Assembly (NCBI GenBank): GCA_025362555.1
Contig: JANYFP010000072.1
Span: forward strand, 1 to 59,519
From: Verrucomicrobiota bacterium
Lineage (GTDB): Bacteria; Verrucomicrobiota; Verrucomicrobiia; Opitutales; Opitutaceae
Direction of reading: 5' to 3'
Length of the DNA stretch: 59,519 nt
Part shown: in pieces, positions 6,882 to 37,409 of the stretch
Position numbering within the stretch: position 1 is the first letter of the stretch
Layout: the number at the start of each line of letters is the position of its first letter
The notes under the pieces: model-generated
The model's database searches: none
What the model saw: the letters and a program-made list of their open reading frames with translations, nothing else
What the model was told of the DNA's origin: nothing
Made by a program: the position numbers and the translations under genes

Positions 6882-9434
6882 TTATTGAAATAGCAGCGTG
6901 ATCGTTTCCGGCGGCAACATTTGTTGCAACTGTCGCTGCGCGTTGCTTGCTCCGGTGCGATTGCCCTCGGAGACACAGAGCGTCATTTCGCCGAGTACGC
7001 GGCCGGCATCTGCCGCAGTGGATTCGCGCTCAGGCAATGGCGTCATGCGGGGTCGCGAGCGCTGTGTCACCTGATCCAGCCAGGCCTGCAATCGTCGGCC
7101 GGTGAACAGCGTGCTTTCGCTGCCACCGGTGTGTAGCATCGGTCCGAGCAATTCGATCCAAGGCTGGTCTTCGCGATTCAGGCGGACTTCGCTGGCGGGC
7201 AGATCGGCCAGGGTCAGGTCACCGACGAAGCTCATCCAAAAAGCATCGGTTGAACGCAACTGTGGATTCGTCGCATCCGGCTGCATCGCGGTCAATCGGC
7301 GGCGCACCTGTTCGACATCCAATTTCAAATCGCCGACTCCGCTGATCAACGCGATGGCGGGTTCAGTGGGCGAGAAATCACCTCGCCACACCTGGGCGTG
7401 CGGGAAAACGGTGAGAAAGGTTCGCGTCAGAATATTGACCTCGACCTCCGAGAGCTGGAAGAGCGGCAGCCATTGGCAGAATAATCCGCCTGGGGCCAAG
7501 GCGTCGCGCGCCGCGGTGAATTGTTCCAGGGTGAACAGGGATCCTTCGCCTTGGCGCCACGGCACGACGAGATCACCGACAATCACATCAAAGCGCGCGC
7601 CGGAACCGCGCAGATAATGGCGCGCGTCGTCGGCGACCACGCGGGTGTGCGTATCATCGAGCACGTGATGATTGGCTTCACCGAAATACTCGCGTGCGGC
7701 CGTGACCACCTCAGGCACGAGTTCCATCACCGTCACCTGTTCGATGGGATGAAATAACGCTCCGCCCGCCGTGATGCCGGTGCCCAAGCCAAGAAATGCC
7801 ACGCGCCGCGGCGCCGGATGCAGGAGCAATGGAATGTGCGCTTGCATCCGCTCGTCGCCCGTTGAGGCCGTGCCGCCGAGGCCGTAATGATTGTTGAGTT
7901 TGAGCCGACGCGAGCCGGGACGTTCCGCGACGGCGGTGATGCCATGTGCTCCCTCAGTCAAAGCGATCAAGTGTTCGCCCTGATCAGAGGCGAGACGTAC
8001 ACGGGGCAGTTCCAGTTGAGCGATGGGCCACAGCATCGCGAGCCAGGTGCCCGCGATGACCAAGCCGAATTTTCGCTGCTGCGGCGGATTCTTCCAGCGA
8101 ATCCATTGCCACATTCCCGCGGCCAGCACGAGCGCGCCGAGCCAAAGGATGCTGGTCCACAAGCCGAGCCAGCGCGGCAGCAAAAATCCGGCCGCGAGCG
8201 CACCGCCGACGGAGCCGGTGATATTTGCCACGAGCAATCGCCCGAGCACGCGGGCCGCGCCGTCACCCGAGGTGCGTCCGGCCTGTTCCATAATTGCCGG
8301 CAGGCCGATGCCGAGCAGCGCCATGGGAACCAAGAGCATCGCGGTCGCGAGACCCGAGAGGTGCAGTGCATGCGCGGTCCAGCCGCCATCGACGGAGAGG
8401 TAGCTCAAATTATTTGACAGGTTTAGAAATAGCCAAGGTCCGCTCATGACCGCGAGGCCCGCGAGCATCCACGCGCCGCCCAGTAATCGGAGCGGTGCGA
8501 TCTCCCGGCGCAAACCGAGCCGGGCCAATTGCGCGCCGAGCGCGAGAGCGAAGATGATGACGGCCACGATCACCGAAAACGAATACATGGAGTTCTCATG
8601 GACCTGCGCAAACGCGCGATTCCAGAGCACCTGTAGGGCAAAAGTCACGAGACCGGAGATGAGTGCGAGTAACGCGACGGGCGAAGTGGAGTTAGCGTAA
8701 GGGGGTTGGTTCGGGCGGATTTTATTTTTCAGTTCACGCAGTTCTCCCGCGGGTGCGGTATCATTCGATTCGCCCTGTCGTCGGTCCAGTCGCCACGCGA
8801 CGAAGGCCAACAGGGCGTTGGTTGTGGCGCACAGCCACACCGTTTTGTTGAGTCCTAAATTCGGGAGCAATAGAAAGGGGACGGCGAGTGCGCCGAAGCC
8901 GGCGCCGGCAGTGTTCACGACGTAGAGCCAGCCGGCCGTCAGGCCCAGGTGGCGTTGGCCGCGGTCGACCAAGTGGCCGAGTAACGGCAGCGTACCGCCC
9001 ATGCAAAAAGTTGGAATCAATACCGCGGCAAAGACGACCAGCGTGCGGATTGCCAAAAATAATCCGGCGTGAGCCGATAACGCGTCGAATAGCCACGGAT
9101 AAGCGTGTTCGAAACCATTGAGTAGTGGCGCGACGAGCAGCGCGCCAAGCCCGACACTTAATTCAAGCAGCGCATAGGCGCGCAGCGGACGCTTCCAGCG
9201 AGGGGCGACGCGGCCGACTACGAAAGCGCCTGCGCCCAAGCCGGCGAAGTATCCGGCTAATACCGCCGCAGTGGCTGGAGAGGCGGAGCCAAACAACAGG
9301 GCAAATTGCCGTTGCCAGACAATCTCGTACACGAGGGCCACCGCTCCGGAAACAAACAGCAGCAGCGCCACCGGTCCAAAGTGTGGTGAGGCAACGGGAA
9401 TGCCCGCGCGGATCGATTTCGAGGCAGTCGTCAT
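6882..9434 (-). CDS. Fused multi-pass membrane (MFS-like) / spermidine synthase-like SAM-dependent transferase
   Basis: Two repeated membrane blocks (FVSGAVALVYEIVWQR; ISGLVTFALQVLWNR), then LGLGTGIT, MELVPEV, DDARHYL and FDVIVGD. Start moved to 9434 because the upstream part of the ORF overlaps a terminator. Confidence 0.88.
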   Translation of the reverse strand: MTTASKSIRAGIPVASPHFGPVALLLFVSGAVALVYEIVWQRQFALLFGSASPATAAVLAGYFAGLGAGAFVVGRVAPRWKRPLRAYALLELSVGLGALLVAPLLNGFEHAYPWLFDALSAHAGLFLAIRTLVVFAAVLIPTFCMGGTLPLLGHLVDRGQRHLGLTAGWLYVVNTAGAGFGALAVPFLLLPNLGLNKTVWLCATTNALLAFVAWRLDRRQGESNDTAPAGELRELKNKIRPNQPPYANSTSPVALLALISGLVTFALQVLWNRAFAQVHENSMYSFSVIVAVIIFALALGAQLARLGLRREIAPLRLLGGAWMLAGLAVMSGPWLFLNLSNNLSYLSVDGGWTAHALHLSGLATAMLLVPMALLGIGLPAIMEQAGRTSGDGAARVLGRLLVANITGSVGGALAAGFLLPRWLGLWTSILWLGALVLAAGMWQWIRWKNPPQQRKFGLVIAGTWLAMLWPIAQLELPRVRLASDQGEHLIALTEGAHGITAVAERPGSRRLKLNNHYGLGGTASTGDERMQAHIPLLLHPAPRRVAFLGLGTGITAGGALFHPIEQVTVMELVPEVVTAAREYFGEANHHVLDDTHTRVVADDARHYLRGSGARFDVIVGDLVVPWRQGEGSLFTLEQFTAARDALAPGGLFCQWLPLFQLSEVEVNILTRTFLTVFPHAQVWRGDFSPTEPAIALISGVGDLKLDVEQVRRRLTAMQPDATNPQLRSTDAFWMSFVGDLTLADLPASEVRLNREDQPWIELLGPMLHTGGSESTLFTGRRLQAWLDQVTQRSRPRMTPLPERESTAADAGRVLGEMTLCVSEGNRTGASNAQRQLQQMLPPETITLLFQ

Positions 9435-9475
9435 GGAATGGCGGGAAGCGTGGTGGCTAATCAAAAGGGCGAAAG

Positions 9476-9509
9476 AAAAAAGACGGGGCGAAACAATCGC
9501 CACCGTCTT
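9476..9509 (-). terminator. Terminator of outer-membrane barrel paralog 1
   Basis: Minus strand AAGACGGTGGCGA-TTGTT-TCGCCCCGTCTTTTTT. Confidence 0.8.
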
Positions 9510-9558
9510 GTGCACCTAAAGACCCTGACTGGGCTGGGCGCTAAGAGCGCCGATTGGT

Positions 9559-10671
9559 TCAGAATTTATAATTAAAGCTCCACATGATCAGGTAATTTGC
9601 GAACGCCGCGTCGCCCTGGGCGTATTTGCCGGTGGCCCAGGTCTTCACCTTGTCGGGATAGCTTTGCATGCGATTGCGCTGGATCGCGTATGGCACGTAG
9701 AGTCGTAGCGACCATTTCTTGCGGTCGATGCTGATGCCTGGCTCGACTGCCACCGAATAGCCGGGACGGCGGCTGCCCAAGCTACCGCCAATCAGATCGT
9801 ACACTGCCACGCCCTCGGCGCGGAGGCCGAGGCTAAGGGAGATGCCTGAAGCCCCACCGAAGGCATATTCCACGCCGGTGCGACCGACGTAGGAGTCACC
9901 AATCGAATTTCCGATGCGGTTTTTTTCCTGCGGTGTAACGGTGTAGTTGGCGCTGCCGAAGGCGGTGAAACCGGCGCCGAGCAGACGGTAGCCGTTAAGA
10001 CCGACACTGATGCCATAACCGCCCAAGCCCGGCTGGATCGAGTTATCGACGTATTTCTGCACCGCGAGAACCTTGTCGTTAACAGCGTCGTAGGATTCAA
10101 AGGTGTCCATCACGTCGAACTTGCCGGTGGGAAGCACCACGCCGAAGTTGACCTGAAGATTGCCTTTTTGCGAAGTCGTCGGATTAAAAATCCACGCATT
10201 GCCCGTGATGCTCGCGTCGGAGATACCGGTGGCTTGAGTGTGGTAACGCTCGAACACGGCACCATTTTTCTTCAGCGTTTGGGAGCGATCATGATTCACA
10301 TAAGGAACAACCAGCGAGACGCTGTAGCGCGGCGAGATGGTGTAGTTCAGACCGAAATCGATGAAGCTCGAACGGTTGATCACTTGATCGCCCGCCGCAT
10401 CGCGCTGGGGTTGGTAAGCAGTGCCGACATAGTGGCGGTCAGATTGAAACCAACGGTACGAGACGGAAGCGTCCCAGCGTTGGTCAGGATTGCCTTCGTT
10501 CATTGAGGCGGGCAGGCCGCTGCCGTGGGCGGTAACGCAACCTTGGGCGTGGGCTTGGGCTGCGGAAAAAATAAATGCGACCGTAAGCGTCAAGGCGCGA
10601 ACGTTCTGGGTGGCGAGTCGGAGGAGGGGGCTCATCTGACGGGTACGTGACGGTATTGCGTGGGTTTGCAT
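9559..10671 (-). CDS. Outer-membrane beta-barrel 'transporter' (COG4313/MetA-pathway-like), paralog 1
   Basis: Signal peptide AQAHA/QGCV, amphipathic beta strands, LPTG motif, C-terminal FNYKF beta-signal. Confidence 0.75.
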   Translation of the reverse strand: MQTHAIPSRTRQMSPLLRLATQNVRALTLTVAFIFSAAQAHAQGCVTAHGSGLPASMNEGNPDQRWDASVSYRWFQSDRHYVGTAYQPQRDAAGDQVINRSSFIDFGLNYTISPRYSVSLVVPYVNHDRSQTLKKNGAVFERYHTQATGISDASITGNAWIFNPTTSQKGNLQVNFGVVLPTGKFDVMDTFESYDAVNDKVLAVQKYVDNSIQPGLGGYGISVGLNGYRLLGAGFTAFGSANYTVTPQEKNRIGNSIGDSYVGRTGVEYAFGGASGISLSLGLRAEGVAVYDLIGGSLGSRRPGYSVAVEPGISIDRKKWSLRLYVPYAIQRNRMQSYPDKVKTWATGKYAQGDAAFANYLIMWSFNYKF

Positions 10672-10778
10672 GGTGGGGTGATAACGAACGATCTTTACTG
10701 CACGCCGGCTGCAAAAGTCAGTCGGCGGGTAATCGAGTGCGGAACCGTGATAAAATTTCACCAACAGGAAACACTTAA

Positions 10779-10811
10779 GGGACGAAGAGCGGTTCTGTTG
10801 GGGCGGTCTGC
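10779..10811 (-). promoter_or_regulatory. LytTR-type direct-repeat operator (21-bp period)
   Basis: Sense strand GCAGACCGCCCC-N9-GCTCTTCGTCCC, about 108 bp upstream of the paralog 1 start. Confidence 0.65.
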
Positions 10812-10903: not shown

Positions 10904-10938
10904 AAAAAAAGACGGCGGCGAATTTCGCCACCGTCTTT
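10904..10938 (-). terminator. Terminator of outer-membrane barrel paralog 2
   Basis: Minus strand AAAGACGGTGGCGAA-A-TTCGCCGCCGTCTTTTTTT, nearly identical to the paralog 1 terminator. Confidence 0.85.
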
Positions 10939-11020: not shown

Positions 11021-12157
11021 TCAGAGTTTATAGCTGAAACTCAGCATGATCAGATAATCGGCGAACGCTGCATCGCCTTGGCTGTAGACGCCGGTGGCCC
11101 AGGTCTTTTGCTTGTCTGGAACACTCTGGAGGCGATCACGCTGAATGGCATAGGGCACGTAGAGTCGCGCGGACCAATTTTTCCGGTTGATGCTGATGCC
11201 TGGTTCGATGGCGACCGAATATCCCGGCCGGCGGAAGCCATTGCTGCCTCCGATCAAATCGTACACCGCGACACCTTCGGCGCGCAGGCCGAGGCTTAGC
11301 AATATCCCCGAGGAGCCACCGAAAGCATATTCCACCCCGGTGCGACCCAGGTAGGTATCAGCAATCGACATGATCGTTTCATAGGTGCCGGAACGGAACG
11401 TGGGAACTCCGTTGGTCTCCTGCGGGGTGATCGTGTAGTTGGCTGCGGCGAAAGCAGTGAAGCCGGCGCCCAATTGACGGTAGCCGGAGACGCTCAGGAT
11501 GATCCCATAACCGCCGGTACCCGGCTGAATCGATTGGTCGACGGTTTTCTCGACCGCGAAAACCTGGCCGGAAGCCTTGTCGAATGATTGAAATGTGTCG
11601 CGTACGTCCTTTTTGCCGGTCGGGAGAGACAAGCCCAAACCGAGTTGGATGTTACCTTTGGACGACGTCGCCGGATCGAAGACCCACGCGTTGCCGACAA
11701 CGCTGATGTCGGCGAGGCCGGTTGCTTGGGTGTGATAGCGTTGGAAAACTACGCCGGCTACATTCTTCAGAGTTTGCGAACGATCATGGGAAACAAAGGG
11801 AACCGTGATCGAGACACTGTAACGGGGGGAGATGGTATAGTTCAGGCCGAGATCGGTGAAGCTCGAGCGGTTGATCACCTGATCTCCGGCCGCATCGCGT
11901 TGGGCTTGGTAAGCGACGCCAACATAATGGCGGTCGGATTGAAACCAGCGGTAGGAGACGGAGAGGTCCCAAGCGTGGGCCTGATCGCCCTGCTCGATCG
12001 CGCAATTCATACCGCTGCCGTGAGCGGCAACGCAGCCTTGGGCGTGCGCTTGGGCGGTGGAAAATAGTACCAAGGCACTCAGCGTGAGAGTGCGGACGTG
12101 CTGCTTGGCGAAAGCCAAGAGGGGACGAATGGAACGGGAAGTAACGGAGGTTTGCAT
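11021..12157 (-). CDS. Outer-membrane beta-barrel 'transporter', paralog 2
   Basis: Highly similar to 9559-10671 (shared VSYRWFQSDRHYVG, QRDAAGDQVINRSSF, RRPGYSVAxEPG); ends FSYKL. Confidence 0.78.
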   Translation of the reverse strand: MQTSVTSRSIRPLLAFAKQHVRTLTLSALVLFSTAQAHAQGCVAAHGSGMNCAIEQGDQAHAWDLSVSYRWFQSDRHYVGVAYQAQRDAAGDQVINRSSFTDLGLNYTISPRYSVSITVPFVSHDRSQTLKNVAGVVFQRYHTQATGLADISVVGNAWVFDPATSSKGNIQLGLGLSLPTGKKDVRDTFQSFDKASGQVFAVEKTVDQSIQPGTGGYGIILSVSGYRQLGAGFTAFAAANYTITPQETNGVPTFRSGTYETIMSIADTYLGRTGVEYAFGGSSGILLSLGLRAEGVAVYDLIGGSNGFRRPGYSVAIEPGISINRKNWSARLYVPYAIQRDRLQSVPDKQKTWATGVYSQGDAAFADYLIMLSFSYKL

Positions 12158-12280: not shown

Positions 12281-12313
12281 GGGGCGAGTTGCCTTCAGGG
12301 CGGGACGAGTTGC
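12281..12313 (-). promoter_or_regulatory. LytTR-type direct-repeat operator (21-bp period)
   Basis: Sense strand GCAACTCGTCCC-N9-GCAACTCGCCCC, about 124 bp upstream of paralog 2. Confidence 0.75.
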
Positions 12314-12625: not shown

Positions 12626-15600
12626 TTACTTCCGGTCGGTCTTGTGCTCGAAGACCAACACCGGTCCGGCGCATTCGCTGACGATCACGGTGAGATGCCC
12701 GTCTTTCGTCTGACCGACTACAGCGACCGAGCGCGCTTCGCCAGGGACGACCAAGCCGCTGGCCGACGGACTCAGCGCCGTGAAGCCGCCCTTGCCATCC
12801 CCTTTGAGCAACACCCCTAAGCTGCCGTCAAACCGGCCCGTGGTCGCCTCGGGACCGAAATTATTGCCAACGCAAAAGAGGTCGAGTTTGCCGTCGCCAT
12901 CGAAGTCGCGCGCCGCAATCGAGTTGATCGGGGCCAACTGCGCAAGGCGGGGCAAGGGCTGAAATTCAAAGACTCCTTTGCCGCGATTAATGAATACTCC
13001 GCTGGCCAGTTCCGTCGCGGTGAATTTATTTACCTTCGCGAGATGATCGGCTCCGAAGACATCTTCCACCGTCGCCTGGCCGAAGGCTTTGTAGCTGGGG
13101 TATTTTTTCGGCAGCCATGGGAAAGCGTAAGCTAATTTGCTGCGTCCGCGCAGGGGGACGAGCTTGCCGTCTTCGTATTGGGCCTCGATCAACTGGTCTT
13201 TTCCGGTGCCGTCGAAATCGCCGGAGAACAGGACCGTTGGCTGTGTCGCCGATGCGTGATATTTGGTGTTGAGGCCGACATTGCCTGCGATGAGATCAGG
13301 TCGGCCGTCGCCATTGACGTCAGCCACCGTGAGGGCGCTCCACCACCCGGTGATCCCGGCGAGTCCGGCTTTTTCGGTGAGATTTTCGAAACCGTGGCCC
13401 GTGTTGTGCCAATAGGAAATGGGGCCCCATTCGATCGCGACGAGAAGATCAGGGCGCTTGTCGCCATCGACATCGGCCCAGACGGCCGCCGTCACCATGC
13501 CTACTTTGCGCAAGCCGGGGGCGAGTTCATCCGTTACATCGACCAATTTACCACCGACATTGTGGTAAAGGAAACTGCGTGGCGTCTCGGGATATTTGCC
13601 GGGCACCACGCGACCACCGACGAAGACGTCGCTCTTGCCGTCGCCATCGAAGTCAGCGACCGCGACCGCCGCAGTGCTTTCGCCGTCGGCCGGCAGCATG
13701 CCGTCGGGAGCGAGCGTGAATTTTCCGTGACCGTCGTTCAGGTAGAGTCGATCATTCATCAGGGGATCGCCTGCAGCTTTCTGGATGCCACCGGCGATGA
13801 TGAGCAAATCGGGGAATTTGTCGCCGTTGACATCGAGAAACACCGCTCCGACATCGTCGGATTCAATCGCAGCGGACCACGGTTGGTCGGGGGCAGATTT
13901 GAAACTGCCATCAGCTTGGGCGAGGAAGAGTTCGCCGGATTGACCGGCCGTCCCGGTGACGAAAACATCGTCCCGGCCATCGCCATTGACATCCGCCGTG
14001 GCGAGCACCGGGCCGAGGCCGTTGAGCCGGCGCGGGAGGAGGCGCTGCCGGGTGAATTCGTCGAAGGGCCGCAGCGCGTTGCTGTGTTTCAAGCCAAGAT
14101 TGTCAGCCGGTGCAGAGAAGAGCGCGGTGGGTGATGCGGGTGTTTTGAATACCGCAGCGCTTAGCACGGGCTTCGCGCCCTCCACGAGCGCGGGTTCGGT
14201 GATGGTGAGGAGTTGATCGGCGGGGATATTTTCCAGCACCTGTACCTGACCACGCGGCCATTTGATGGTGAGTTTTTTAATCGTGGGGTCAGCGCCGAGC
14301 CCGAAGTGGACGAGCGGGGGTTCGCTGGCGACGATGCCGCGTTCGGTGAAGAGTTGACGCACTTGCACGCCTGAGGCGGTTTCAATGCGCAGTTCGGCAC
14401 CGATGCCATCGAGATTCGGGGCGTGGCCGGATAATTTGATGTTAGTGCGGTGCCCTGTGGTGGTGTCGTTGCGGATGATGGTTGGCGGCGCGTTGTAATT
14501 GGCGAAAACCAGATCGAGGTCGCCGTCGCCATCGAGGTCGGCGAGAGCGCAGCCGAAGCTGACGCCATCATGATCGAGGCCCCATTCTTTCGAGACATCG
14601 GCAAAGTTGAGGTTGCCCAGATTGCGGTAGGCGAGGGTGGTCTCGTGGCGAGGTTGGGCATTTTTCCAGACGGCGGCGCGGGCGCCGAGTGTGGGCGCGG
14701 TGTTTTGTTTATCCACGAGATCGGCATCGATGAAATTGCGGATCATGCCGGCGGTGACAAAGGCATCGAGGCGGCCATCGTTATCGAGGTCACCGAGACG
14801 CGCTGACCAGGTCCAGCCAGTGGCATCCATGCCGGTGAGATGCGCGACTTCGGCGAAGTGATCCGTGCCGGTGTTCAAGTAAACCGCGTTCCACATGTAT
14901 TGCGGAATGAGTTCGTTCACGCGTTCCATTTCCCAGAGACCGCGGCCGATTTCTTCCATGCCGGCGATAAATTCCGGATGATTGCGATCGCGCATGTCGG
15001 TGATGAAAAAGTCCATCAGGCCGTCGTTGTTGATGTCGCCCGCGTCGGCACCCATGGAGAAATAGGTGACGTGCGGCAGGCGTTCGTCGATGACGTCGAC
15101 AAAGGTGCCGTCGCCCTTGTTGAGGTAAAGCCGGTCCGGGGTTTCGAAATCGTTGGCGCAATAAATGTCGGGCCAGCCGTCGTGGTTGATATCCACCCAC
15201 AGTGCGGTGTGGCCTTGGGTCAGGCCCCAGATGCCCGCCGCCTTGGAAACATCGGTGAACGTGCCGTTGCCATTATTGTGAAGAAGATAGGCGCGGCGGC
15301 CTTGGGGTGATTTGGAAAAATCGAGAATGTTGGTGACGAGGTAACAGTCGATGAAACCATCGCGATCATAGTCCGCCCAGACGGCGTGAACGGAGGCATC
15401 CTTGATATCGAGGCCGTAGGCTTTGGCGCTTTCCGTGAAGGTGCCGTCGCGGTTGTTGATGAAGAGCAGATTTGGGGCGTCGTAGCGGCAGAGGTAGATG
15501 TCGGGCCAGCCGTCCTGGTTGATATCGACCACGCTCGCGCCGGTGTTGCTCGTCGGTTCGTTATCGACGGCGACGCCGGCTGCATGGGCGACCTCGGTGA

Positions 15601-15934
15601 ATTTAAAGGGTGCAACCTGCAGATACAACGCGCAGGGGCCATTCCTTGACACGGAAAAAATATCGGGCCGTCCGTCACGGTTGAAGTCGGCGACCACGAT
15701 GCCCGTCTCAACCGCGCCGAGGGTGAGCTCACGGAAACGGTTACCCCACATGCGCGGGTCATTGAAAACATTCGGCACGGCCACGCCGGTGTCGGCCGGG
15801 TCGAGCATTGAAAAGAGTTTGGCTCCCGCCGGGGCGGCGGTCCGCGGATGGAGTGGGGTGGCGGTGTAGTCCGCTGCGAAGGCACCGGTCGTGGCGCCGA
15901 GGAGCGCGGCAAGGAGAAGCGTGGATTTGAACAT
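12626..15934 (-). CDS. Large secreted FG-GAP/VCBS-repeat protein with central ASPIC/UnbV domain (CRTAC1-like)
   Basis: Signal peptide, many DxN/DxDGxxD Ca-binding repeats in two blocks, and an ASPIC/UnbV segment (GIGAELRI..VHFGLG..IKWPRG) between them. Confidence 0.9.
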   Translation of the reverse strand: MFKSTLLLAALLGATTGAFAADYTATPLHPRTAAPAGAKLFSMLDPADTGVAVPNVFNDPRMWGNRFRELTLGAVETGIVVADFNRDGRPDIFSVSRNGPCALYLQVAPFKFTEVAHAAGVAVDNEPTSNTGASVVDINQDGWPDIYLCRYDAPNLLFINNRDGTFTESAKAYGLDIKDASVHAVWADYDRDGFIDCYLVTNILDFSKSPQGRRAYLLHNNGNGTFTDVSKAAGIWGLTQGHTALWVDINHDGWPDIYCANDFETPDRLYLNKGDGTFVDVIDERLPHVTYFSMGADAGDINNDGLMDFFITDMRDRNHPEFIAGMEEIGRGLWEMERVNELIPQYMWNAVYLNTGTDHFAEVAHLTGMDATGWTWSARLGDLDNDGRLDAFVTAGMIRNFIDADLVDKQNTAPTLGARAAVWKNAQPRHETTLAYRNLGNLNFADVSKEWGLDHDGVSFGCALADLDGDGDLDLVFANYNAPPTIIRNDTTTGHRTNIKLSGHAPNLDGIGAELRIETASGVQVRQLFTERGIVASEPPLVHFGLGADPTIKKLTIKWPRGQVQVLENIPADQLLTITEPALVEGAKPVLSAAVFKTPASPTALFSAPADNLGLKHSNALRPFDEFTRQRLLPRRLNGLGPVLATADVNGDGRDDVFVTGTAGQSGELFLAQADGSFKSAPDQPWSAAIESDDVGAVFLDVNGDKFPDLLIIAGGIQKAAGDPLMNDRLYLNDGHGKFTLAPDGMLPADGESTAAVAVADFDGDGKSDVFVGGRVVPGKYPETPRSFLYHNVGGKLVDVTDELAPGLRKVGMVTAAVWADVDGDKRPDLLVAIEWGPISYWHNTGHGFENLTEKAGLAGITGWWSALTVADVNGDGRPDLIAGNVGLNTKYHASATQPTVLFSGDFDGTGKDQLIEAQYEDGKLVPLRGRSKLAYAFPWLPKKYPSYKAFGQATVEDVFGADHLAKVNKFTATELASGVFINRGKGVFEFQPLPRLAQLAPINSIAARDFDGDGKLDLFCVGNNFGPEATTGRFDGSLGVLLKGDGKGGFTALSPSASGLVVPGEARSVAVVGQTKDGHLTVIVSECAGPVLVFEHKTDRK

Positions 15935-15946: not shown

Positions 15947-16783
15947 TTAGGCGGCGAGAACTCTCTCTTGAATGACGACGGGGTGGGAGTGAGTGAGGAG
16001 AAGAGCCAGCGCCAGCGGGGCAAAGTAGCTGCCGAAGCGTTCGATCAATTCCCAGATGGGCGAGCCGGAAACAAGAAATAAGGATTCAGTGGAAATTTTC
16101 CAGAGACAGATCGCGAGCAACAGGGTCGGCCGGGGCCGGAAGAGCACAAGTCCGGCGAGCAGAAACTCGAAAACCCCGACCCAGGGTACGACTGCGGCCG
16201 GGTTTGTGAGATGCAGGGCCGCATAGTGGCGGGCGAGACCGGCCTTGTGCGCGAAAAGACCGAGACCGGCATGGCCGGCGAGCAACGTGAACGTGGTGAG
16301 CCGCAGGATCCACGTGAGCCGGGCTTGGTGGGAAAGAGTATTCCACAGCGAAGGCAGGCGGCTAAACCAAGGTCCGCTTACGCCGATCACCGTGAGAATG
16401 GCCACTGGCACCCCAAAATTACCCGCGCGCTCGAAGAATTCCCAAACCGGTTCACCGGAAAGAGGCCGCAGTAACGCAGTCCAAACAGTCCACACTGCGG
16501 CCCACATAAACAGCGCGCGACTGGGCCGCAACAGGGCAAGAATCCCGATCGTGATATCCATCCACCCGATCCAAGGCATCAGGCGCCAGGCCCACGCTTC
16601 GCCGACGCCGCCGACTGCGAAATACGGGACCCACGCCGCTTTGGTGATGACGCCAAAAGCACCATGGCCGATGAAACAGCCGGCCATTCCGATTCGCAGG
16701 ATCCACGGAATTGCGCCGGCGGTGGCAGCATCGGCCGATGCTAAGTTCCCGTCTGACGGCAGACTGGCATTGGAGTACATCAT
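15947..16783 (-). CDS. Integral membrane protein with two internal DoxX-like repeats
   Basis: Repeat 1 LRIGMAGCFIGHG..WEFFERAGNFGVP; repeat 2 LRLTTFTLLAGHA..WELIERFGSYFAP; about 8 hydrophobic segments. Confidence 0.7.
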   Translation of the reverse strand: MMYSNASLPSDGNLASADAATAGAIPWILRIGMAGCFIGHGAFGVITKAAWVPYFAVGGVGEAWAWRLMPWIGWMDITIGILALLRPSRALFMWAAVWTVWTALLRPLSGEPVWEFFERAGNFGVPVAILTVIGVSGPWFSRLPSLWNTLSHQARLTWILRLTTFTLLAGHAGLGLFAHKAGLARHYAALHLTNPAAVVPWVGVFEFLLAGLVLFRPRPTLLLAICLWKISTESLFLVSGSPIWELIERFGSYFAPLALALLLTHSHPVVIQERVLAA

Positions 16784-18254: not shown

Positions 18255-18287
18255 GGGGCGAGTTGCCGCCGCAGTGGGATGAAATGA
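18255..18287 (-). promoter_or_regulatory. LytTR-type direct-repeat operator (21-bp period)
   Basis: Sense strand TCATTTCATCCC-N9-GCAACTCGCCCC, about 98 bp upstream of the haloperoxidase. The proximal box with flanks (AGGGGCGAGTTGCC) is identical to 12280-12293. Confidence 0.65.
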
Positions 18288-18411: not shown

Positions 18412-18444
18412 GTGGCCAGTAGCTAGCAGGGAGGGACGAATGGC
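18412..18444 (-). promoter_or_regulatory. LytTR-type direct-repeat operator with no adjacent protein gene
   Basis: Sense strand GCCATTCGTCCC-N9-GCTACTGGCCAC, followed 4 nt later by a TTGAAT (-35-like) hexamer. Confidence 0.5.
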
Positions 18445-30753: not shown

Positions 30754-31530
30754 TCAGGTGCCGGTCGCGAACTTCCCGAGTTGACTGCGCAGACTGCGGC
30801 TGAGCGGCAGCTTCGTGCCTTCGCGCAACAACACGGTGTAGTCACTGTGCAGCGCCGGCTGGATCTCTTTGATCTGATCGAGATGTACAATCGCAGACCG
30901 GTTGACGCGCACAAAACTGGTGGTTCCCAAACGTGCCTCGATCGCACTCATCGTCTCACGCAACATCAAGCGTCCGGTTGTCAGATGCAGCACCACGTAG
31001 TTGTCGGCTGCTTCCACCCAAACGATTTCATCCGCTTTCAAAAACACGAGACGGCCGTCGGCTTTCACCGTCAGGCGTTCATTTTTCAATGCGGGTGTTG
31101 GCGACGGGGTTTCCGCGATTTCTGCTTCCGTTTTTTGGGTGGACTCGACCGGGACCGGGCGGCGCAGGCGGTGATATTCCTGCGCGCGACGGAGGGCGGT
31201 TTGCAAGCGCTCGCGATCAAAGGGCTTCAGGAGATAATCGATCGCCTGCACTTCAAACGCATCGAGTGCGAACCGCTCGTGAGCAGTCGCAAAAATAATC
31301 CCCGGCCGGTTTTCCTCCGGGATTCCCGCGAGGACCTGCATCCCGTTGCACCCCGGCATTTGCATATCGAGAAACACCAGATCCAGCGGCGTGTTTTTGA
31401 TGGTGGTGACCGCGTCGAGGCCGTTGCCGCATTCGCCGACAACTTCGATGGCGGTTTCCGTGCGTAACATGCCCAGCAACCGTTCGCGGGCGAGCGGTTC
31501 ATCGTCAACAATCAGAGCGCGGAGTTTCAT
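30754..31530 (-). CDS. LytTR-family DNA-binding response regulator
   Basis: LIVDDEPLAR, FLDMQMP, DYLLKPF; LytTR domain WVEAADNYV..FVRVNRSAIV..LPLSRS. Confidence 0.95.
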   Translation of the reverse strand: MKLRALIVDDEPLARERLLGMLRTETAIEVVGECGNGLDAVTTIKNTPLDLVFLDMQMPGCNGMQVLAGIPEENRPGIIFATAHERFALDAFEVQAIDYLLKPFDRERLQTALRRAQEYHRLRRPVPVESTQKTEAEIAETPSPTPALKNERLTVKADGRLVFLKADEIVWVEAADNYVVLHLTTGRLMLRETMSAIEARLGTTSFVRVNRSAIVHLDQIKEIQPALHSDYTVLLREGTKLPLSRSLRSQLGKFATGT

Positions 31531-31568
31531 GAGGGAAAAGTTGAGAAGTGAGTTTGAACGATCTGAAC

Positions 31569-31598
31569 TGTGGGCGGGGGTGCCCCCCCCCCGCCCAC
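31569..31598. repeat. Collapsed family C REP palindrome
   Basis: TGTGGGCGGGGGTGC(C-run)GCCCAC shares both ends with the 24463-24540 element. Confidence 0.55.
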
Positions 31599-31625
31599 CA
31601 AGAATGATAGTGACCATCAATTGAT

Positions 31626-32708
31626 TCATACTGGCAAGGTCAGCTTGATTTCCAAACCACCCTTGGCGTGGTTGGCCAGCTCGAAGCGGTGTCGGTCCCC
31701 GTAAAGTTCGCGCAGGCGGGCGCGGGTGTTGCCTAGTCCAATCCCTTCACGCGTGAAACCGCCGGCTGGCTGGCCCGCACCGTTGTCCCGCACGATCAGG
31801 ACCAGGCCCGCTGGCTCACGTTTCACGATTATCTCAATGTGCCCCGGCCGCGCGTGCGGCTCGAGGCCATGCCGAATGGAGTTTTCCACCAACGGCTGAA
31901 GAATGAGACTCGGCACGTCCGTTTCCAAAGCGGCGGGATCAACGTCGATCGCCACCGTGAGCCGATCGCGAAACCGGATGCGCTCGATCTCCAGGTATTT
32001 TTCAATGAACGCGATTTCCTCCCGGAGCTTAGTGAGCGGTTGCCCAGGATGATGCATCGTGAGTCGCAGGAGTTCGCTCAGCCGCACGAGCATCCGGTCG
32101 GCGGCATCGACATCGCTGTGCATGAGTGACGCGATGCCGTTGAGCGTGTTGAAAAGGAAATGGGGCTTCAGTTGGCGGAGCAACGCTTGCAAGCGCGCCT
32201 CCGTGAGATGTTTTTCCAATTCCAGATTGTGCACGGTGCGCTCGTGGTATTTGCGATAATAATCAATCGCGTGACTGGCCGAAATAATGACCCCGTAAAT
32301 GAGGAGATTGAAGGGAAAGGTTTTAACCAACAGTGGCTGGAAGACTTCGAGAAACGTCACTGACTCATCGATCAGCGCACTATGAATCTGGCCGACCAGT
32401 GCGCGGAGCGTGACGTAAATCAGCGAAAAAAACAGCGCAGCAATCAAATGAATGCCGGCCGTGCGCCAGCGTGCGCCACTCTCGGGCGGGAATCGCCGCG
32501 CGAATACCAAAATCGGCACCGAGAGCACCGCCCACACATACCAATCCGCCAATGAAAGACTGATCGCCTGCCCCCACGTGACCGACCGACCCAGCAGTGT
32601 ACTCGACAGATAAAACTGACTCGCGAACGCCAGTCCAACCAGCGTCCAAAAAATGACGACGCCCGCCAGGCGGGAAAGGGAACGAAAAAGCGGGCGGGCG
32701 GCAGACAT
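31626..32708 (-). CDS. LytS/YehU-type sensor histidine kinase
   Basis: About 4 TM segments, QLKPHFLFNTLN H-box, LQPLVENSIRHG, DNGAG and GIGLGNTRARL. Confidence 0.93.
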   Translation of the reverse strand: MSAARPLFRSLSRLAGVVIFWTLVGLAFASQFYLSSTLLGRSVTWGQAISLSLADWYVWAVLSVPILVFARRFPPESGARWRTAGIHLIAALFFSLIYVTLRALVGQIHSALIDESVTFLEVFQPLLVKTFPFNLLIYGVIISASHAIDYYRKYHERTVHNLELEKHLTEARLQALLRQLKPHFLFNTLNGIASLMHSDVDAADRMLVRLSELLRLTMHHPGQPLTKLREEIAFIEKYLEIERIRFRDRLTVAIDVDPAALETDVPSLILQPLVENSIRHGLEPHARPGHIEIIVKREPAGLVLIVRDNGAGQPAGGFTREGIGLGNTRARLRELYGDRHRFELANHAKGGLEIKLTLPV

Positions 32709-32853
32709 CGCGTAAAATGGTTTGCGGTCGATCAAGGAGTGACAAGCAATACCTGTCCATGCCCTTTCGGGCTTATTTCCGGTGAGCCGCCTCCTTTCTC
32801 CTCCCAGTATTCCTGCCATCCCGCCTGCGGCCGGGACCCCGCAACATGGAGCC

Positions 32854-34521
32854 ATGCCACCGTTGTTGCCCGTGGTGCTGACTCTCGTGGTCGCGGCGAT
32901 TGTGTTGAGCGTCGTCTTCGCACTCTTCTTTCCCGTCACCGGTCCGACTCAACCGCTGTCTGCTGCGCGCTTCACAAATGTGACCGAAGCGTCCGGCATT
33001 CGGTTTGTTCAACACGCGGGTGCGCAGGAATCCCCCACCACGCTCGGTGGCGCGGTCGTCGTGCTCGATTACGACAACGATGGGCACCCGGATCTTTTTT
33101 TCGTCAATGGCACCGCGTGGCCTTGGGAGGACCTCGGCGCTTGGACCCACGCCTCGGCGTGTACGCTTTATCATAACGACGGCACCGGGCATTTCACCGA
33201 CGTCTCGCAGGCGGCGGGCGTTGATCTCGTCATGCAGGGGATGGGTGCGGCGGTGGGTGATTTCGATAACGATGGGTTTCCGGATATTTTCATCACTGGC
33301 GTCGGACAGAATCATCTCCTGCACAATAAGGGCGATGGCACGTTTGAAGATGTCTCCCTCGCGGCCGACGTGGCGGGCGATGATCACACGTGGAGCACGG
33401 GTGCGACGTGGATCGATTATGATGGCGATGGATTGCTGGACCTCGTCGTCGCGCATTACGCCCGGTGGCCGCAGGAAGTGCCGCTCGCGATGGCGTTCAC
33501 GATCGCGGACCTTGGGCGCTCTTACGGTGCGCCCACCGGATTTGTCAGTGCGGTTCCGTCGGTGTACCACAATCTGGGTCATGGAAAATTTGCGCTCGTG
33601 CCTGGCAGCGCCGGTTTGCGCAACCTCGACCCGCAAACCGGCATGCCGGTGGCCAAGACCCTGGCCGTCGTGCCGGTCGATGCCAACGGCGATGGCAAAC
33701 TCGATTTGCTTTTCACCTATCACACGAGTGAAAACGCCCTCTTCCTCAATCAAGGTGACGGGACGTTCAAGAAATGGACCGGCGGGGCCGAGAAACGCAA
33801 TGAAGGCGCGGCTGCAGGCTTGGCGTCGGCAAACATTCTGCCCTTTGCGAACGCTTCGGCGACGGATGAACGTCTGGCCGCCTTTCAATCTGCCGGGGCA
33901 CTCGACGCAGTCAATTCGGGTGAGCCGCAGCTTCACTTGCTTGGCAAAGTGGGCGCGGCGTTGCTCGATTACGAGTTCGACGGTCACCTCGTGCTGTTTT
34001 CCGGCAACGGTCACGCGGAACCGGACCTGAATAAATTTGAGCAAGGCCGTAATTTTTCCGCGCCGCCGCAATTGTTCTTGTCCCGCAACAACCGCTGGTT
34101 GCCCGCGCCCGTGGCGGAAGGTGGCACTTGGGCGCGCCCCCTTGTCGCCCGCGGGATCGCCGTGGCGGATCTCGACGGCGATGGCGATGCGGATGTGATC
34201 ATCGTGCAGAATGACGGCCCCGCGCTCATTCTGCGCAATGACCAGCGCAGCGGCCTGCCGTGGTTGCGCCTGCGGCTCATCGCGACGCGGAGCCAGCCTG
34301 ATGCGGGTGGTGCGCGCGTGGAAGTGCACACGCCGCGCCGCATTCTCACGCGCACCGTTGCGCCCGCGATGGGTTTTATGGCTCAGTCAGAAACCACGCT
34401 GACTTTTGGGCTGGGCGACGATGCGCGGGTCCGGAAAATTGTCATCCAATGGCCCTCTGGCCAGCGCCAGGAACTCCGCCAATCCACCGTCAACCAGACC
34501 GTCACGATCCGCGAGCCGTGA
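32854..34521 (+). CDS. Membrane-anchored FG-GAP + ASPIC/UnbV (CRTAC1-family) protein
   Basis: N-terminal hydrophobic anchor, DYDNDGxPD repeats, C-terminal DAGGARVEV..TFGLG..IQWPSG. Start uncertain (32782 or 32854). Confidence 0.88.
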   Translation: MPPLLPVVLTLVVAAIVLSVVFALFFPVTGPTQPLSAARFTNVTEASGIRFVQHAGAQESPTTLGGAVVVLDYDNDGHPDLFFVNGTAWPWEDLGAWTHASACTLYHNDGTGHFTDVSQAAGVDLVMQGMGAAVGDFDNDGFPDIFITGVGQNHLLHNKGDGTFEDVSLAADVAGDDHTWSTGATWIDYDGDGLLDLVVAHYARWPQEVPLAMAFTIADLGRSYGAPTGFVSAVPSVYHNLGHGKFALVPGSAGLRNLDPQTGMPVAKTLAVVPVDANGDGKLDLLFTYHTSENALFLNQGDGTFKKWTGGAEKRNEGAAAGLASANILPFANASATDERLAAFQSAGALDAVNSGEPQLHLLGKVGAALLDYEFDGHLVLFSGNGHAEPDLNKFEQGRNFSAPPQLFLSRNNRWLPAPVAEGGTWARPLVARGIAVADLDGDGDADVIIVQNDGPALILRNDQRSGLPWLRLRLIATRSQPDAGGARVEVHTPRRILTRTVAPAMGFMAQSETTLTFGLGDDARVRKIVIQWPSGQRQELRQSTVNQTVTIREP

Positions 34522-34537
34522 GGGCGGTTACTCTACC

Positions 34538-34751
34538 GTAGCCACAGGCCTCCGGCCGGTGGGATTGGGTCGAGGTGAAATTGTGGTGTGTGTCGTGGGG
34601 TAGGTGGCGCGCTTGTCGCGCCACACCGTTGTTTGCTTGCTGCAAACCCGGTGTTGGTCCGCACCAGCCGTGCGGCAAACGGTTCGATCATTATGCGGCG
34701 AGCGCGCAACCCACGGGAGCCAAGCCGGCAGGCACGGAGGCCTGCCACTAC
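34538..34751. repeat. Nested REPIN: family A pair enclosing a family B pair
   Basis: Family A at 34538-34563 (GTAGCCACAGGCCTCCGGCCGGTGGG) and inverted at 34725-34751; family B at 34600-34624 and inverted at 34695-34714. Confidence 0.8.
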
Positions 34752-34895
34752 ACGCCACGTTATTTCGCAGACACCGCCTAGCGGTTAACCTTCCAGGGTT
34801 CTCTGGCTCTATTTGAGCGGGCTCGGCTCAGTCGCGCAGGCGGCATCACGCAGTGCGTTCGTTTTCGCCCTCTGGGCCCACTCATTCCCCGAAAA

Positions 34896-34928
34896 GCAGT
34901 TCGCCCCTGAAATCCAGCAGCTCGCCCC
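34896..34928 (+). promoter_or_regulatory. LytTR-type direct-repeat operator (21-bp period)
   Basis: GCAGTTCGCCCC-N9-GCAGCTCGCCCC, about 117 bp upstream of the porin gene and oriented with the + strand gene. Confidence 0.75.
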
Positions 34929-35044
34929 CGGTGCCTTGTGCCACGAGGGATTGGCCGTCTTACTAGACCGAGCTTCTTTCAGGCGTCCACGACCGCCAGA
35001 TCGGGGTCGGTTGTCTGTGGCTAGGGCGTGGACTTTTTCACCCC

Positions 35045-36286
35045 ATGACCTCAAGCATCGCTGTTTTGTCTTTCACATCCGCTCGCCCCGCGCGTCATCT
35101 GCTCGGCTGCGCCGCAGTACTGGCCGTTTTTAGTTTCGTGTTTTCCATTGGCCACGCGGAAACAATCCCCACGCCGGCTCCGATTTCAGCTCCGACTCCC
35201 GCCCCAGTTGCCGCATCCGCTTCGGCGCCCGCTGCGCCAAGTTCCGACCTGAGTTTCTATGGCGATTTTCGGGTGCGTTACGAATGGGATTGGGATTCAC
35301 AGAATGCCGCCGGCGTCGCACGGACGGATCGCGACCGCGCTCGCCTGCGGGTTCGGTTGGGTGCGAACTACAAATTGTCCAGTGACTGGTCGCTCAGCGC
35401 CCGCGTGCGCACGGGCAACAAACTGAGCCAGCAATCGCCCCACCTGACCTTTTCGTCCAACGACGGGTTGACGGATGATTTTGCCATTCAACTTGACCGC
35501 TACTACGTGCAATTCAAGCAATCGGCTTTTTCCGCGTGGGGCGGGCGCAACGTTTCACCGTTCTGGCAGCAAAACGAATTTCTGGTGGATGACGATGTCA
35601 CGCTCACGGGGGTCGCCGGCACGTATGAGACGAAATTGGATCACGGCACGGTTGCGACCACGGTCGGCGCTTTTTATCTGCCCGATGGCATGAACGATCT
35701 CAATGGCACGCTGGTCGGCGGACAAATTAAATACGCTCTGTCGGTCAAGCCGTCACAATTCGTTTTCGCGGCCGGGCTCTACCAATTCGACGGCAAGAAT
35801 GGCGCCAAGAATCTGCGCAACCGGAATGGCGCGCGCGATTATCTGATCGGGGTGCTGAATGCACAGTGGATTGAGCCGTTGTCCAACGGTCTGCCACTCA
35901 CGCTGGGGGCCGACTTCTTTAATAATTTCGAAAATTACAGCGCGGCCGATGCGGCACCGTTCGCTCCGAGTCACGCGGGTCAAACCACCGGCTACGTCCT
36001 GTCGGTTCAGGTGGGTCAGCTCAAAAAACCGCACGATTGGCAAGTCGGGTATTACTATGCGCACATCGGAACTTTCGCCGTTAACGCCTCCTATTCGGAA
36101 GACGACTGGGCCCGCTTCGGCAATGCCGCGCAATCCGATCTTACGGATATCAAGGGCCACGAATTTCGCGCCAGTTATGTGATCATGAAGAACCTCAACA
36201 TTACGAGCCGCGTCTTTTTTGTCGAAGCCATCACCAGTCAGCAAGACGGCAAACGTTGCCGGATTGATCTTAACTGGAAGTTCTGA
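35045..36286 (+). CDS. Putative porin (Porin_5-like outer-membrane beta-barrel)
   Basis: Signal peptide, Pro/Ala linker, GDFRVRYE, RDRARLRVRLG, LDRYY and C-terminal DLNWKF. Confidence 0.82.
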   Translation: MTSSIAVLSFTSARPARHLLGCAAVLAVFSFVFSIGHAETIPTPAPISAPTPAPVAASASAPAAPSSDLSFYGDFRVRYEWDWDSQNAAGVARTDRDRARLRVRLGANYKLSSDWSLSARVRTGNKLSQQSPHLTFSSNDGLTDDFAIQLDRYYVQFKQSAFSAWGGRNVSPFWQQNEFLVDDDVTLTGVAGTYETKLDHGTVATTVGAFYLPDGMNDLNGTLVGGQIKYALSVKPSQFVFAAGLYQFDGKNGAKNLRNRNGARDYLIGVLNAQWIEPLSNGLPLTLGADFFNNFENYSAADAAPFAPSHAGQTTGYVLSVQVGQLKKPHDWQVGYYYAHIGTFAVNASYSEDDWARFGNAAQSDLTDIKGHEFRASYVIMKNLNITSRVFFVEAITSQQDGKRCRIDLNWKF

Positions 36287-36326
36287 GTCCATTCTCCCCG
36301 CCTCCATCGTTTCATTCTCCACGCTT

Positions 36327-37409
36327 ATGAAAGTCCCTTCCACGCTTCTGATTCTCGCGACCCTTAGCCTCTTTTCCCATTTAACCGCCGCGACGGTCGC
36401 TCCCGTCACCACGACCTATCACGTCGAACAAAACGTGACTCTTTCTGAAATTCCCCTCGGCACAAAATCCGTCAAATGGTGGATCTCCATTCCGAATGAC
36501 GACCGGTATCAGGAGGTGCTCGATTTCAATGTCGTCTCAGCCCCGGGCACATGGAGCACCGTGCGGGAGTTGGATCACGGCAACCGGTTCATGCTCGTTG
36601 AAGTAACTTCGCCCCAGTGGAATTCGCTTACGACCAAGGTGGAGTTCACGCTTCGTCGCCGCTCGGTTTTCACGGAGATCGATCCGGCGAAAGCAGGTGC
36701 GATCACCGACTCTCACCGGCTGCTGTTTGTTGACGCGCTGCGCAAAGACGCCCCGCACATGGAGGCATCGGCCAAGATTGTTGAATTCGCGAACAAGACT
36801 TGCGGCACTGAAACGAACGTCGCGACGCAGGCGAATCTTCTGCTCAACGCGGTTGCCGACTACGCCGACCACTATTCGAAAGATCCCAGCAAGCCGAAGT
36901 GCAGCGTCGGTGACGCCGGTGATTGCATGACGAACGCCGGCGGTTGCTGCACCGACATGCATTCGATGTTCATCGCTCTGGCCCGGGCCCGGGGCATTCC
37001 GGCCCGTTTGCAAATGGGCTATCGCCTCAAGGAAGCCAACGAGGGCAAGGAAGTTGATCCCGGTTATCGCTGCTGGGTGGAATATTTTGTCCCGAACTAC
37101 GGTTGGATCTCTGCCGATATCGTCGAAGCTGACGCGTCCAACGGCCTCGGTCGCACCCGCTGGTTCAGCGGTCTCACGGAGCGCCGTCTCTGGTTGAACG
37201 AAGGTCGTGAATTTAATCTCAATGGTCGCGCCGTGACGGACCACCGCGTCAACACGATGGTCATCGGCTACGCCGAGATTGACGGGGTCGAAGCGCGCGT
37301 GTTGGCCAACGAGAGCGCCAAGCAACTCGCTCAAATTTCCCGCACCGTGCGTTACACCGAAATCAAGCCGGCCGCGGAGCAGGTCAATGTCGCAGCGGCC
37401 AAGCCGTAA
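36327..37409 (+). CDS. Exported transglutaminase-like domain protein
   Basis: GCCTDMHSMFIALARARGIPARL core, GYRCWVEYF and GWISAD; signal peptide from ATG 36327. Confidence 0.85.
   Translation: MKVPSTLLILATLSLFSHLTAATVAPVTTTYHVEQNVTLSEIPLGTKSVKWWISIPNDDRYQEVLDFNVVSAPGTWSTVRELDHGNRFMLVEVTSPQWNSLTTKVEFTLRRRSVFTEIDPAKAGAITDSHRLLFVDALRKDAPHMEASAKIVEFANKTCGTETNVATQANLLLNAVADYADHYSKDPSKPKCSVGDAGDCMTNAGGCCTDMHSMFIALARARGIPARLQMGYRLKEANEGKEVDPGYRCWVEYFVPNYGWISADIVEADASNGLGRTRWFSGLTERRLWLNEGREFNLNGRAVTDHRVNTMVIGYAEIDGVEARVLANESAKQLAQISRTVRYTEIKPAAEQVNVAAAKP

Follow-up and report, generated by a model that had tools for sequence, protein, structure and literature searches.

The question raised by the locus studied here is what an exported enzyme resembling the vanadium haloperoxidases (VHPOs) does beside a very large β-propeller protein. 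The locus lies between positions 6882 and 37409 of contig JANYFP010000072.1 (C304 in our numbering) from an Opitutaceae member of the Verrucomicrobiota (assembly GCA_025362555.1), and the window analysed is this whole contig of 59,519 nucleotides, part of a 5.19-Mb genome that is 94% complete. An initial annotation had proposed a signal-induced envelope machine encoded on an island, and the genes it named are indeed present where it placed them (Pfam, NCBIfam). We conclude that the cluster is real, conserved and undescribed in the literature searched, and that its conserved core is the VHPO together with a propeller protein of 1102 amino acids, usually accompanied by a membrane-anchored propeller protein (CRTAC579) and a LytS/LytTR pair. 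Sequence comparison and structure prediction furthermore bring it close to, if slightly short of, an even chance that VHPO and propeller constitute an inducible, two-subunit, extracytoplasmic oxidase or halogenase driven by peroxide and placed under a LytS/LytTR operator. The two core genes are:

16883..18157, minus strand: VHPO-like exported protein of 424 amino acids, read from the ATG at 18157, with a hydrophobic N-terminus; core
12626..15934, minus strand: secreted double FG-GAP propeller of 1102 amino acids with a central ASPIC/UnbV domain (Pfam); core partner

The enzyme and its propeller neighbour

In a search of PDB sequences the best solved match of the VHPO is ZgVIPO1 (4CIT, E 4e-28), and each of the solved proteins nearest to it bears the name of a haloperoxidase. 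K290, R297, S333, G334, H335, R385 and H391 align to the vanadate-binding residues of 4CIT and are, together with W287, invariant in 57 propeller-linked and 17 unlinked homologues. The protein aligns also to the Curvularia chloroperoxidase (CiVCPO, 1IDQ), and its W287 and D240 presumably correspond to W350 and D292 of that enzyme. The two-bundle architecture of VHPOs extends over the full length, with PF22778 assigned in precomputed annotation and PF17897 matching at E 1.2e-5, below its cut-off, while PF01569 scores 27.1 bits against a cut-off of 27.2. Weak matches were likewise obtained to 3W35 and 9PTR (E 3e-7 for the latter); His335 is retained, and we take it to differ from the Ser427-type residue of the NapH1/AQ-type enzymes. 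Position 328 is Phe in 47/57 homologues and His in the other 10. The motifs K-X6-RP, PSGH and SR-X5-H are all present, and as these residues are a signature of PAP2 acid phosphatases as well, they do not separate the two activities. A homologue of 74% identity (P0031) bears in NCBI the name of the cultured Lacunisphaera limnophila.

Conservation of the neighbourhood was assessed in 76 loci, obtained by keeping the best 80 of 588 VHPO matches; 59 of these form a clade at VHPO identities of at least 45% and the other 17 are more distant outliers, many loci are truncated, and counts of neighbours within 10 kb were taken over the 59 clade loci. The closest relatives are records from Opitutaceae and other Opitutia, and the VHPO is present in 59/251 genomes of the family. 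The propeller, which matches human CRTAC1 (9ETN) at E 4e-17, follows the VHPO in 53 of the 55 Opitutia clade loci that have at least 1.5 kb of downstream DNA and is absent from all 17 outlier loci. Accessory genes shuffle freely between loci, and 13 wider neighbourhoods from an earlier search for relatives, counted apart because they may overlap the 76, hold the same parts in shuffled order.

The two kinds of domain are also joined in nature, since a genome of the same genus encodes a 1385-residue FG-GAP-ASPIC-Ig-VHPO-Ig fusion (L115:1187-5344; G019:C32) with a distant VHPO-type domain and a C-terminal anchor. Its end consists of a Gly-rich stretch, a transmembrane segment and a basic tail, which we take to resemble a surface-sorting signal. 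The VHPO subfamily of the fusion occurs in 5/301 genomes of the phylum, and the six matches viewed held no ASPIC fusion and one adjacent ASPIC gene, so that fusions of this type are rare.

Modelled together, VHPO residues 23-418 and propeller residues 21-590 reach a complex score of 0.73 (runs 0.72, 0.73 and 0.77), as opposed to 0.00 for each of three controls; the mark applied to this score is reached by 116/157 solved and 2/215 mismatched pairs and is only roughly valid with the alignments used here. The runs share at least 75% of their contacts, and the partners are modelled with a predicted local distance difference test (pLDDT) of at least 92 (VHPO 93). PDB sequence searches with either chain returned no comparable complex. 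The predicted interface involves VHPO residues 40, 42, 102-112, 168-175, 241, 303-304 and 317-320 and propeller residues 68, 206-211, 236-238, 264-266, 279-284 and 407-419. Where the 57 linked VHPOs show at least 90% conservation, the residue is retained in 11% of the 17 unlinked enzymes at the 13 interface positions and in 76% at the 123 others; at 17 propeller interface positions it is kept in 36% of 11 paralogues from the same genome, against 70% for 225 others. Conservation confined to linked proteins is what a specific interface predicts, and the suggestion of the initial annotation that a CRTAC propeller holds the enzyme thus gains support from the model. By alignment the interface segments of the VHPO neighbour P47, P213, D292 and F393-F397 of the Curvularia enzyme, which we take to line its substrate funnel; a propeller bound there likely caps the mouth of the VHPO funnel or active site.

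The genome encodes at least 14 ASPIC/UnbV propellers, and those without a VHPO often have TonB receptors, glycosidases and LacI regulators as neighbours, which suggests an independent ligand-binding role for the propeller. A unit made up of a TonB receptor, an 800-920-residue protein without Pfam match and a 1100-1230-residue FG-GAP/ASPIC protein recurs on C270, C262, C128, C354, C338, C580 and C66, and looks like the Opitutaceae counterpart of SusC/SusD loci.

A shared operator and its probable regulators

Four transcription units of the window carry the same 12-bp direct repeat with a period of 21 bp, GCA(A/G)(C/T)TCG(C/T)CCC-N9-repeat. The sites and the putative regulators are listed below, the held-out rank of an operator being its place in a ranking of every position in the 5.19-Mb genome when each was omitted in turn.

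10779..10811, minus strand: operator 1, before barrel 1 and the transferase; weakest of the four; held-out rank 12
12281..12313, minus strand: operator 2, before barrel 2; held-out rank 2
18255..18287, minus strand: operator 3, before VHPO-DoxX-propeller; held-out rank 4
18412..18444, minus strand: second, weaker site upstream of the VHPO; score 18.9; tandem sites also in L040, L063 and L092
21852-21884: weak site before CRTAC803; score 14.9
30754..31629, minus strand: LytTR response regulator (Pfam), presumed operator binder; 36/59 loci
31626..32708, minus strand: LytS-type kinase with about four transmembrane segments; 34/59 loci
32782..34521, plus strand: CRTAC579, a membrane-anchored FG-GAP/ASPIC protein of 579 amino acids with one N-terminal hydrophobic segment, divergent from LytS; 34/59 loci
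34896..34928, plus strand: operator 4, before the porin and the transglutaminase-like gene; held-out rank 2; conserved in L051, L064, L163 and L175

LytTR proteins bind direct repeats that are arranged in pairs at a spacing of about two helical turns and stand immediately 5' of the gene; our literature search on LytTR operator architecture found no paper. A matrix trained on the window sites detects the operator (score >18) at period 21 on the coding strand of 36/55 orthologous VHPO upstream regions, against at most 3/55 at any other period in the range 16-27 and 2 on the opposite strand. A second matrix, trained on sites of 55 relatives that had been picked with the window matrix and hence not fully independent, places the window operators at ranks 1, 2, 3 and 7 of the genome, operator 1 being the seventh. 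The operator is furthermore found in 25 of the 33 loci carrying LytS, and in a sample of 32 genomes (the truncated L087 omitted, five outlier loci uncounted, LytS orthologues at 64-81% identity, kin non-independent and genomes incomplete) it is present in 13/16 in which the LytS orthologue lies outside the locus and in 3/10 in which LytS is absent. The repeat therefore fits the architecture of LytTR regulons and tracks the cognate regulator; the common operator motif of the four units is real, and their probable co-regulation by LytTR, as initially proposed, is supported by comparison of orthologous promoters. Clearer operators than the weak site of the window precede the orthologous CRTAC803 unit in two relatives (L148 and L162). 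An exact-pattern scan of 251 genomes matched 74 of them, but since the reversed control and C-rich repeats gave frequent matches too, it was used only for choosing loci. CRTAC579 accompanies LytS in 33 of the 34 LytS loci and is likely an accessory sensor.

Two or three VHPO paralogues, often with an operator each, occur in single loci (L064, L065, L078, L083, L086 and L091), some of them paired with DoxX and others with a propeller. A fifth-ranked operator-like site (score 21.9) is found at G000:C262 8468 (L137), where it precedes the gene of a TonB-dependent receptor that diverges from a propeller paralogue, and L173 is a similar case.

The fourth-ranked operator of the whole genome (G000) lies outside the window, at C344:+10125 (score 27.5 with the relatives-trained matrix), and heads a second unit:

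G000:C344 10125-19803 (L136): operator, propeller paralogue (46%), 857-residue protein and 1052-residue propeller

The 857-residue protein has four CxxCH motifs and resembles hydrazine synthase beta/gamma and the cytochrome c peroxidase (CCP)/MauG family, and the 1052-residue propeller has two such motifs. The partner of the C344 propeller combines a propeller with a di-haem domain, as chains B and C of 5C2V do, and remains far below the hydrazine synthase cut-offs of NCBIfam (210/1250, 165/560 and 78/625 bits). The unit is conserved in 11 close relatives. A VHPO is encoded in 18/21 genomes with the 857-residue di-haem protein, compared with 59/251 overall, and in 12/12 with its close orthologues, the kin in both counts not being independent. 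In G540 the di-haem protein is found beside CRTAC579-LytS-LytTR. The operator near it in G009 is directed instead at a divergent unit of DUF255 protein and propeller, and the same arrangement holds in G517, G281 and G460. The presence of the operator before di-haem proteins of a peroxidase family favours peroxide chemistry for the regulon.

A proposed mechanism

Taken together, these observations would be accommodated by the following scheme. A ligand related to that of the large propeller would bind the anchored CRTAC579 and activate LytS, whereupon LytTR would induce four units in the window and one on C344. VHPO and propeller would be exported and assemble via the N-terminal propeller of the latter, which may hold the substrate at the mouth of the funnel, while vanadate, H2O2 and halide would yield a localised hypohalous acid (HOX) or a peroxo-vanadate oxidant. 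The COG4313-like barrels described below could admit small hydrophobic substrates or products, and the C344 propeller with its di-haem unit may form a parallel branch that likewise uses peroxide. As to the substrate, our best guess by analogy is compounds derived from glycans or plant polymers, since homologous loci of other phyla have SusC/SusD and glycosidase neighbours.

Accessory genes and surroundings

The initial annotation had assigned all parts to one machine, which is not supported, since transferase, porin, transglutaminase and barrels are seldom found near the VHPO of relatives. The remaining genes of the locus, listed below, are accessory, apart from a separate signalling block.

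6882..9515, minus strand: fused MFS/spermidine-synthase-like transferase with about 11 transmembrane segments and an S-adenosylmethionine-type fold (NF037959, 106 bits against a cut-off of 40)
9559..10764, minus strand: outer-membrane barrel 1, COG4313/Phenol_MetA_deg-like, with an N-terminal QGC motif
10908..10938, minus strand: intrinsic-terminator-like hairpin 3' of barrel 2, with a 14-pair stem and a T run; recognised by consensus match alone
11021..12157, minus strand: outer-membrane barrel 2, predicted 12-strand COG4313-like channel (model pLDDT 85)
15947..16783, minus strand: DoxX-like membrane protein
18593..19366, minus strand: degenerate FkpA-like FKBP; 10/59 loci
19396..21807, minus strand: CRTAC803, a secreted protein of 803 amino acids with a helical N-terminal part and FG-GAP/ASPIC; 8/59 loci
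22263-30352: separate block with a TonB receptor, a CHASE8/PAS hybrid kinase, a YfiR-like protein and a TOL_0244-like TonB receptor
35045..36286, plus strand: putative porin (Porin_5); 2/59 loci
36219..37409, plus strand: secreted transglutaminase-fold protein; 2/59 loci

The transferase is found in only 1/59 loci and a barrel in 7/59. The two barrels are paralogous, as had been noted, being 68.5% identical with an invariant QGC, and a strong terminator-like hairpin stands between their units. The model of barrel 2 matches 4RL8 with Z 23.8 and a root-mean-square deviation of 2.7 over 258 aligned residues and FapF with Z 20.9, and the barrel profile gave no match among PDB sequences; in the Atlas clusters nearest to the barrels PF13557 is found on 11-15% of members. 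Since the fold is thus like that of the COG4313 channel for hydrophobic molecules, the earlier proposal that the barrels move halide or vanadate is unsupported.

The DoxX-like protein is internally duplicated, as stated before (halves 30% identical, E 1.6e-14), lies within 10 kb in 29/59 loci and has DoxX clusters as its Atlas neighbours. Its best structural matches (Z 8.2 and 7.9, the latter to NACHO/TMEM35A) are within the common range of helical bundles, and Foldseek returned nothing at E<=0.001. Among its 55 homologues of at least 345 amino acids, found within the best 150 representatives, 41 carry a fused His-phosphatase domain, which in most cases is preceded by a signal-like segment, and 2 are fused to PAP2. 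A role as redox donor, as first suggested, or as cytochrome was therefore rejected in view of these fusions, the presence in only about half of the loci and the want of a supporting structural match. P0362-P0482 represent an unnamed family in which duplicated DoxX-like membrane domains are joined to exported histidine phosphatases or, in a few cases, to PAP2, DUF3500 or protease domains.

The transferase, the FKBP and the transglutaminase look catalytically altered in sequence. The transferase falls below the SpeE cut-offs (TIGR00417) and has GLGTG and DLVVP for the GGGDG and DSTDP of 1INL, and because of these scores and the replaced acidic residues it is likely not a putrescine aminopropyltransferase. 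The FKBP was correctly described as degenerate, since the Tyr, Phe-Asp, Trp and Tyr of the FkpA active site are replaced and its aromatic pocket is lost, and the His-less transglutaminase is likewise real, with the Cys kept and Arg in place of the catalytic His of the Cys-His-Asp triad in the window and in 4/4 relatives found. The FKBP-like gene travels with CRTAC803; a second CRTAC803 with a receiver-domain gene (69%) and a second degenerate FKBP (40%) is found on G000:C385 and C366, in both cases next to a large propeller paralogue. In 19 loci the propeller is followed by a DUF255 thioredoxin-like gene, which lacks CxxC in 14/14 examined. Alginate-export barrels, seen in 15 loci, were rejected as part of the core, as a close copy in this genome sits in a nitrate-transport locus.

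The term island itself has no compositional support, as the GC content of the region is flat at 0.56-0.63, and a compositional island was rejected. The span moreover includes the signalling block at 22263-30352, which splits the regulon into two halves; it was rejected as a member of the system, having no operator inside and being absent among the recurring VHPO neighbours of relatives. A scan for sigma-70 promoters found 6 against 4.7 expected. Elsewhere in the window, REP (repetitive extragenic palindromic)-like intergenic repeats occur twice each, GGTAGGTGGCGCGCTTG... (24420-24655, 34522-35044) and GGCAGGCACGGAGGCCTGCC (12595-12612), an unusual multi-domain TonB with four TonB_C matches is encoded at 17-1210, and a 366-residue protein without Pfam or NCBIfam match at 5677-6777, which is found near the cluster also in L063, L069 and L109. 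In L020 and L024 (G009 and G017) the DNA within about 15 kb downstream of the cluster has genes that, by eye from their N-termini, resemble those for making molybdopterin and for ABC transport of molybdate, which may be synteny only or may be relevant to vanadate uptake.

Weighing the alternatives

Several observations speak against a two-subunit peroxide-driven enzyme. The catalytic residues of the VHPO are common to PAP2 phosphatases, and neither a peroxide source nor a vanadate importer was identified in the regulon. The modelled complex covers the N-terminal half of one propeller, with no paralogue among the controls, and the contrast in interface conservation is overstated, because all linked loci belong to a single clade and residues at a protein surface diverge in any case. 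At least 11 further propeller paralogues of 1100-1230 amino acids in the genome have no VHPO, so that the propeller family does not need one. The operator falls below threshold in 8/33 LytS loci and is present in 3/10 genomes without LytS, it directly precedes the di-haem gene in 4/11 close relatives (one of them weak), and 43/55 longer DoxX-like homologues carry phosphatase fusions.

These fusions, together with the shared K-X6-RP, SGH and SR-X5-H residues and the position of the Bacteroidota pair in nutrient-uptake loci, would be explained if the enzyme were a secreted PAP2-fold phosphatase that is offered a phosphorylated substrate, polymer or metabolite, by the propeller, while the DoxX-like protein handles product or phosphate within a scavenging regulon. 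We consider this unlikely, since the full-length two-bundle architecture, the presumed correspondence of W287 and D240 to CiVCPO W350 and D292 and the naming of all nearest solved relatives as haloperoxidases point the other way, DoxX is missing from about half of the loci and the regulon includes di-haem proteins of a peroxidase family. Peroxide chemistry is accordingly favoured over phosphatase activity, the former being somewhat better than an even bet.

Within peroxide chemistry, the propeller could be client rather than partner, its residues being oxidised or halogenated by the VHPO into a protein-derived cofactor, as MauG does with its partner enzyme, with the FKBP-, thioredoxin- and transglutaminase-fold proteins as maturation helpers. 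The interface contains the invariant W236 and is close to aromatic and Met residues that are likewise invariant in the linked propeller, di-haem proteins of the MauG family accompany the second propeller under operator control, and several companions are catalytically degenerate (FKBP, transglutaminase and the DUF255 protein). This possibility is nevertheless improbable, as most propeller paralogues of the genome have no oxidant neighbour, the degenerate helpers are rare among loci and we know of no modified ASPIC/UnbV protein. Quite improbable, finally, is a co-regulated module for envelope stress or peroxide removal, in which halogenation would be incidental and a substrate-directed complex unnecessary: such a module would agree with the presence of two branches of peroxidase fold, together with chaperone-like proteins, under a single LytTR operator and with the free shuffling of accessory genes, whereas a specific partnership of VHPO and propeller is favoured by their near-obligate adjacency, by the fusion and by an interface that is both confident and conserved.

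A more far-reaching extension of the two-subunit oxidase is rather doubtful, namely that FG-GAP/ASPIC-UnbV propellers generally are the substrate-holding subunit of unrecognised two-part extracytoplasmic oxidases, with a VHPO or a MauG-like di-haem protein as interchangeable oxidant that attacks or halogenates glycans or aromatics or builds a propeller cofactor, and that one LytS/LytTR pair with an anchored-propeller receptor runs both branches in Opitutia. If true, it would provide a function for a family whose members range from human CRTAC1 to proteins of enediyne cassettes and of glycan loci in Bacteroidota; its bacterial ASPIC/UnbV propellers are numerous, and to our knowledge no function has been assigned to them. 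The characterised VHPOs act, as far as we know, without a partner subunit, and we know of no heteromeric one, so a two-part oxidase would be the first. Since interface residues are named, the operator is defined and a carrier is in culture, the function of the propeller and the existence of a VHPO partner become directly testable, and should the propeller direct the oxidant, this would open a route to selective biohalogenation and imply oxidative chemistry inside glycan-uptake loci.

Comparison with known systems

ZgVIPO1 (4CIT/4USZ) of Zobellia galactanivorans, reportedly a vanadium iodoperoxidase, and CiVCPO (1IDQ) are of similar size and align at all vanadate-binding residues, but they are distant matches, and the dedicated propeller partner and LytTR operator belong to the Opitutia VHPO. 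The literature searched contained no description of a VHPO with either feature, nor any paper on a VHPO-ASPIC pair or an Opitutia haloperoxidase, the search covering titles and the starts of abstracts, with most subscription journals outside it. In a study of alkyl-quinolone-brominating bacterial VHPOs, these enzymes are exported, encoded outside biosynthetic clusters and act on external substrates (PMC11312541), and their neighbourhoods are variable, whereas the Opitutia clade has a fixed partner.

With 33-38% sequence identity, the VHPO-propeller pair is found again in SusC/TonB loci of Bacteroidota (Hymenobacter and Chondrinema) and Gemmatimonadota (Gemmatirosa, with the order propeller-VHPO-propeller), and full-length propeller homologues lie on annotated plasmids (6/8 records). 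A scan with the Chondrinema VHPO found five metagenome loci, four with an upstream propeller and one too short, while the VHPO of a Phaeobacter plasmid has no propeller neighbour. In all four Bacteroidota loci viewed the propeller follows SusC/SusD with glycosidases; in two of them, Hymenobacter NZ_CP095063 and Chondrinema NZ_CP111061, which carry VCBS proteins, a homologous 1100-residue propeller (33-36%) has a VHPO downstream, and in the other two no VHPO is in view. The Opitutia cluster differs in having LytS/LytTR control instead, and no SusD or glycosidase family match was found among the genes of 6882-37409, which is therefore not a polysaccharide utilization locus. The main text of a paper on such loci from the North Sea mentions neither haloperoxidase nor ASPIC, FG-GAP or VCBS (PMC6298971).

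Enediyne UnbV/E4 and human CRTAC1 (9ETN) share the FG-GAP propeller and the ASPIC/UnbV domain, the second propeller being an extra feature of the 1102-residue protein. E4 is presumably an ASPIC protein acting in iodination, and the 47 window proteins scanned include no enediyne polyketide synthase domain, so that the locus is not an enediyne cassette. An iodinated intermediate of enediyne pathways is described in one report (PMC11350584). The barrels resemble the COG4313 channel Pput2725 (4RL8) and FapF (5O65) in fold at an identity of only 11-15%, and the invariant QGC is their own feature. Hydrazine synthase, MauG and CCP, in turn, are the known systems closest to the C344 partner, which is like them in its propeller and di-haem domain and is set apart by its extra N-terminal c-type haems and its non-anammox host.

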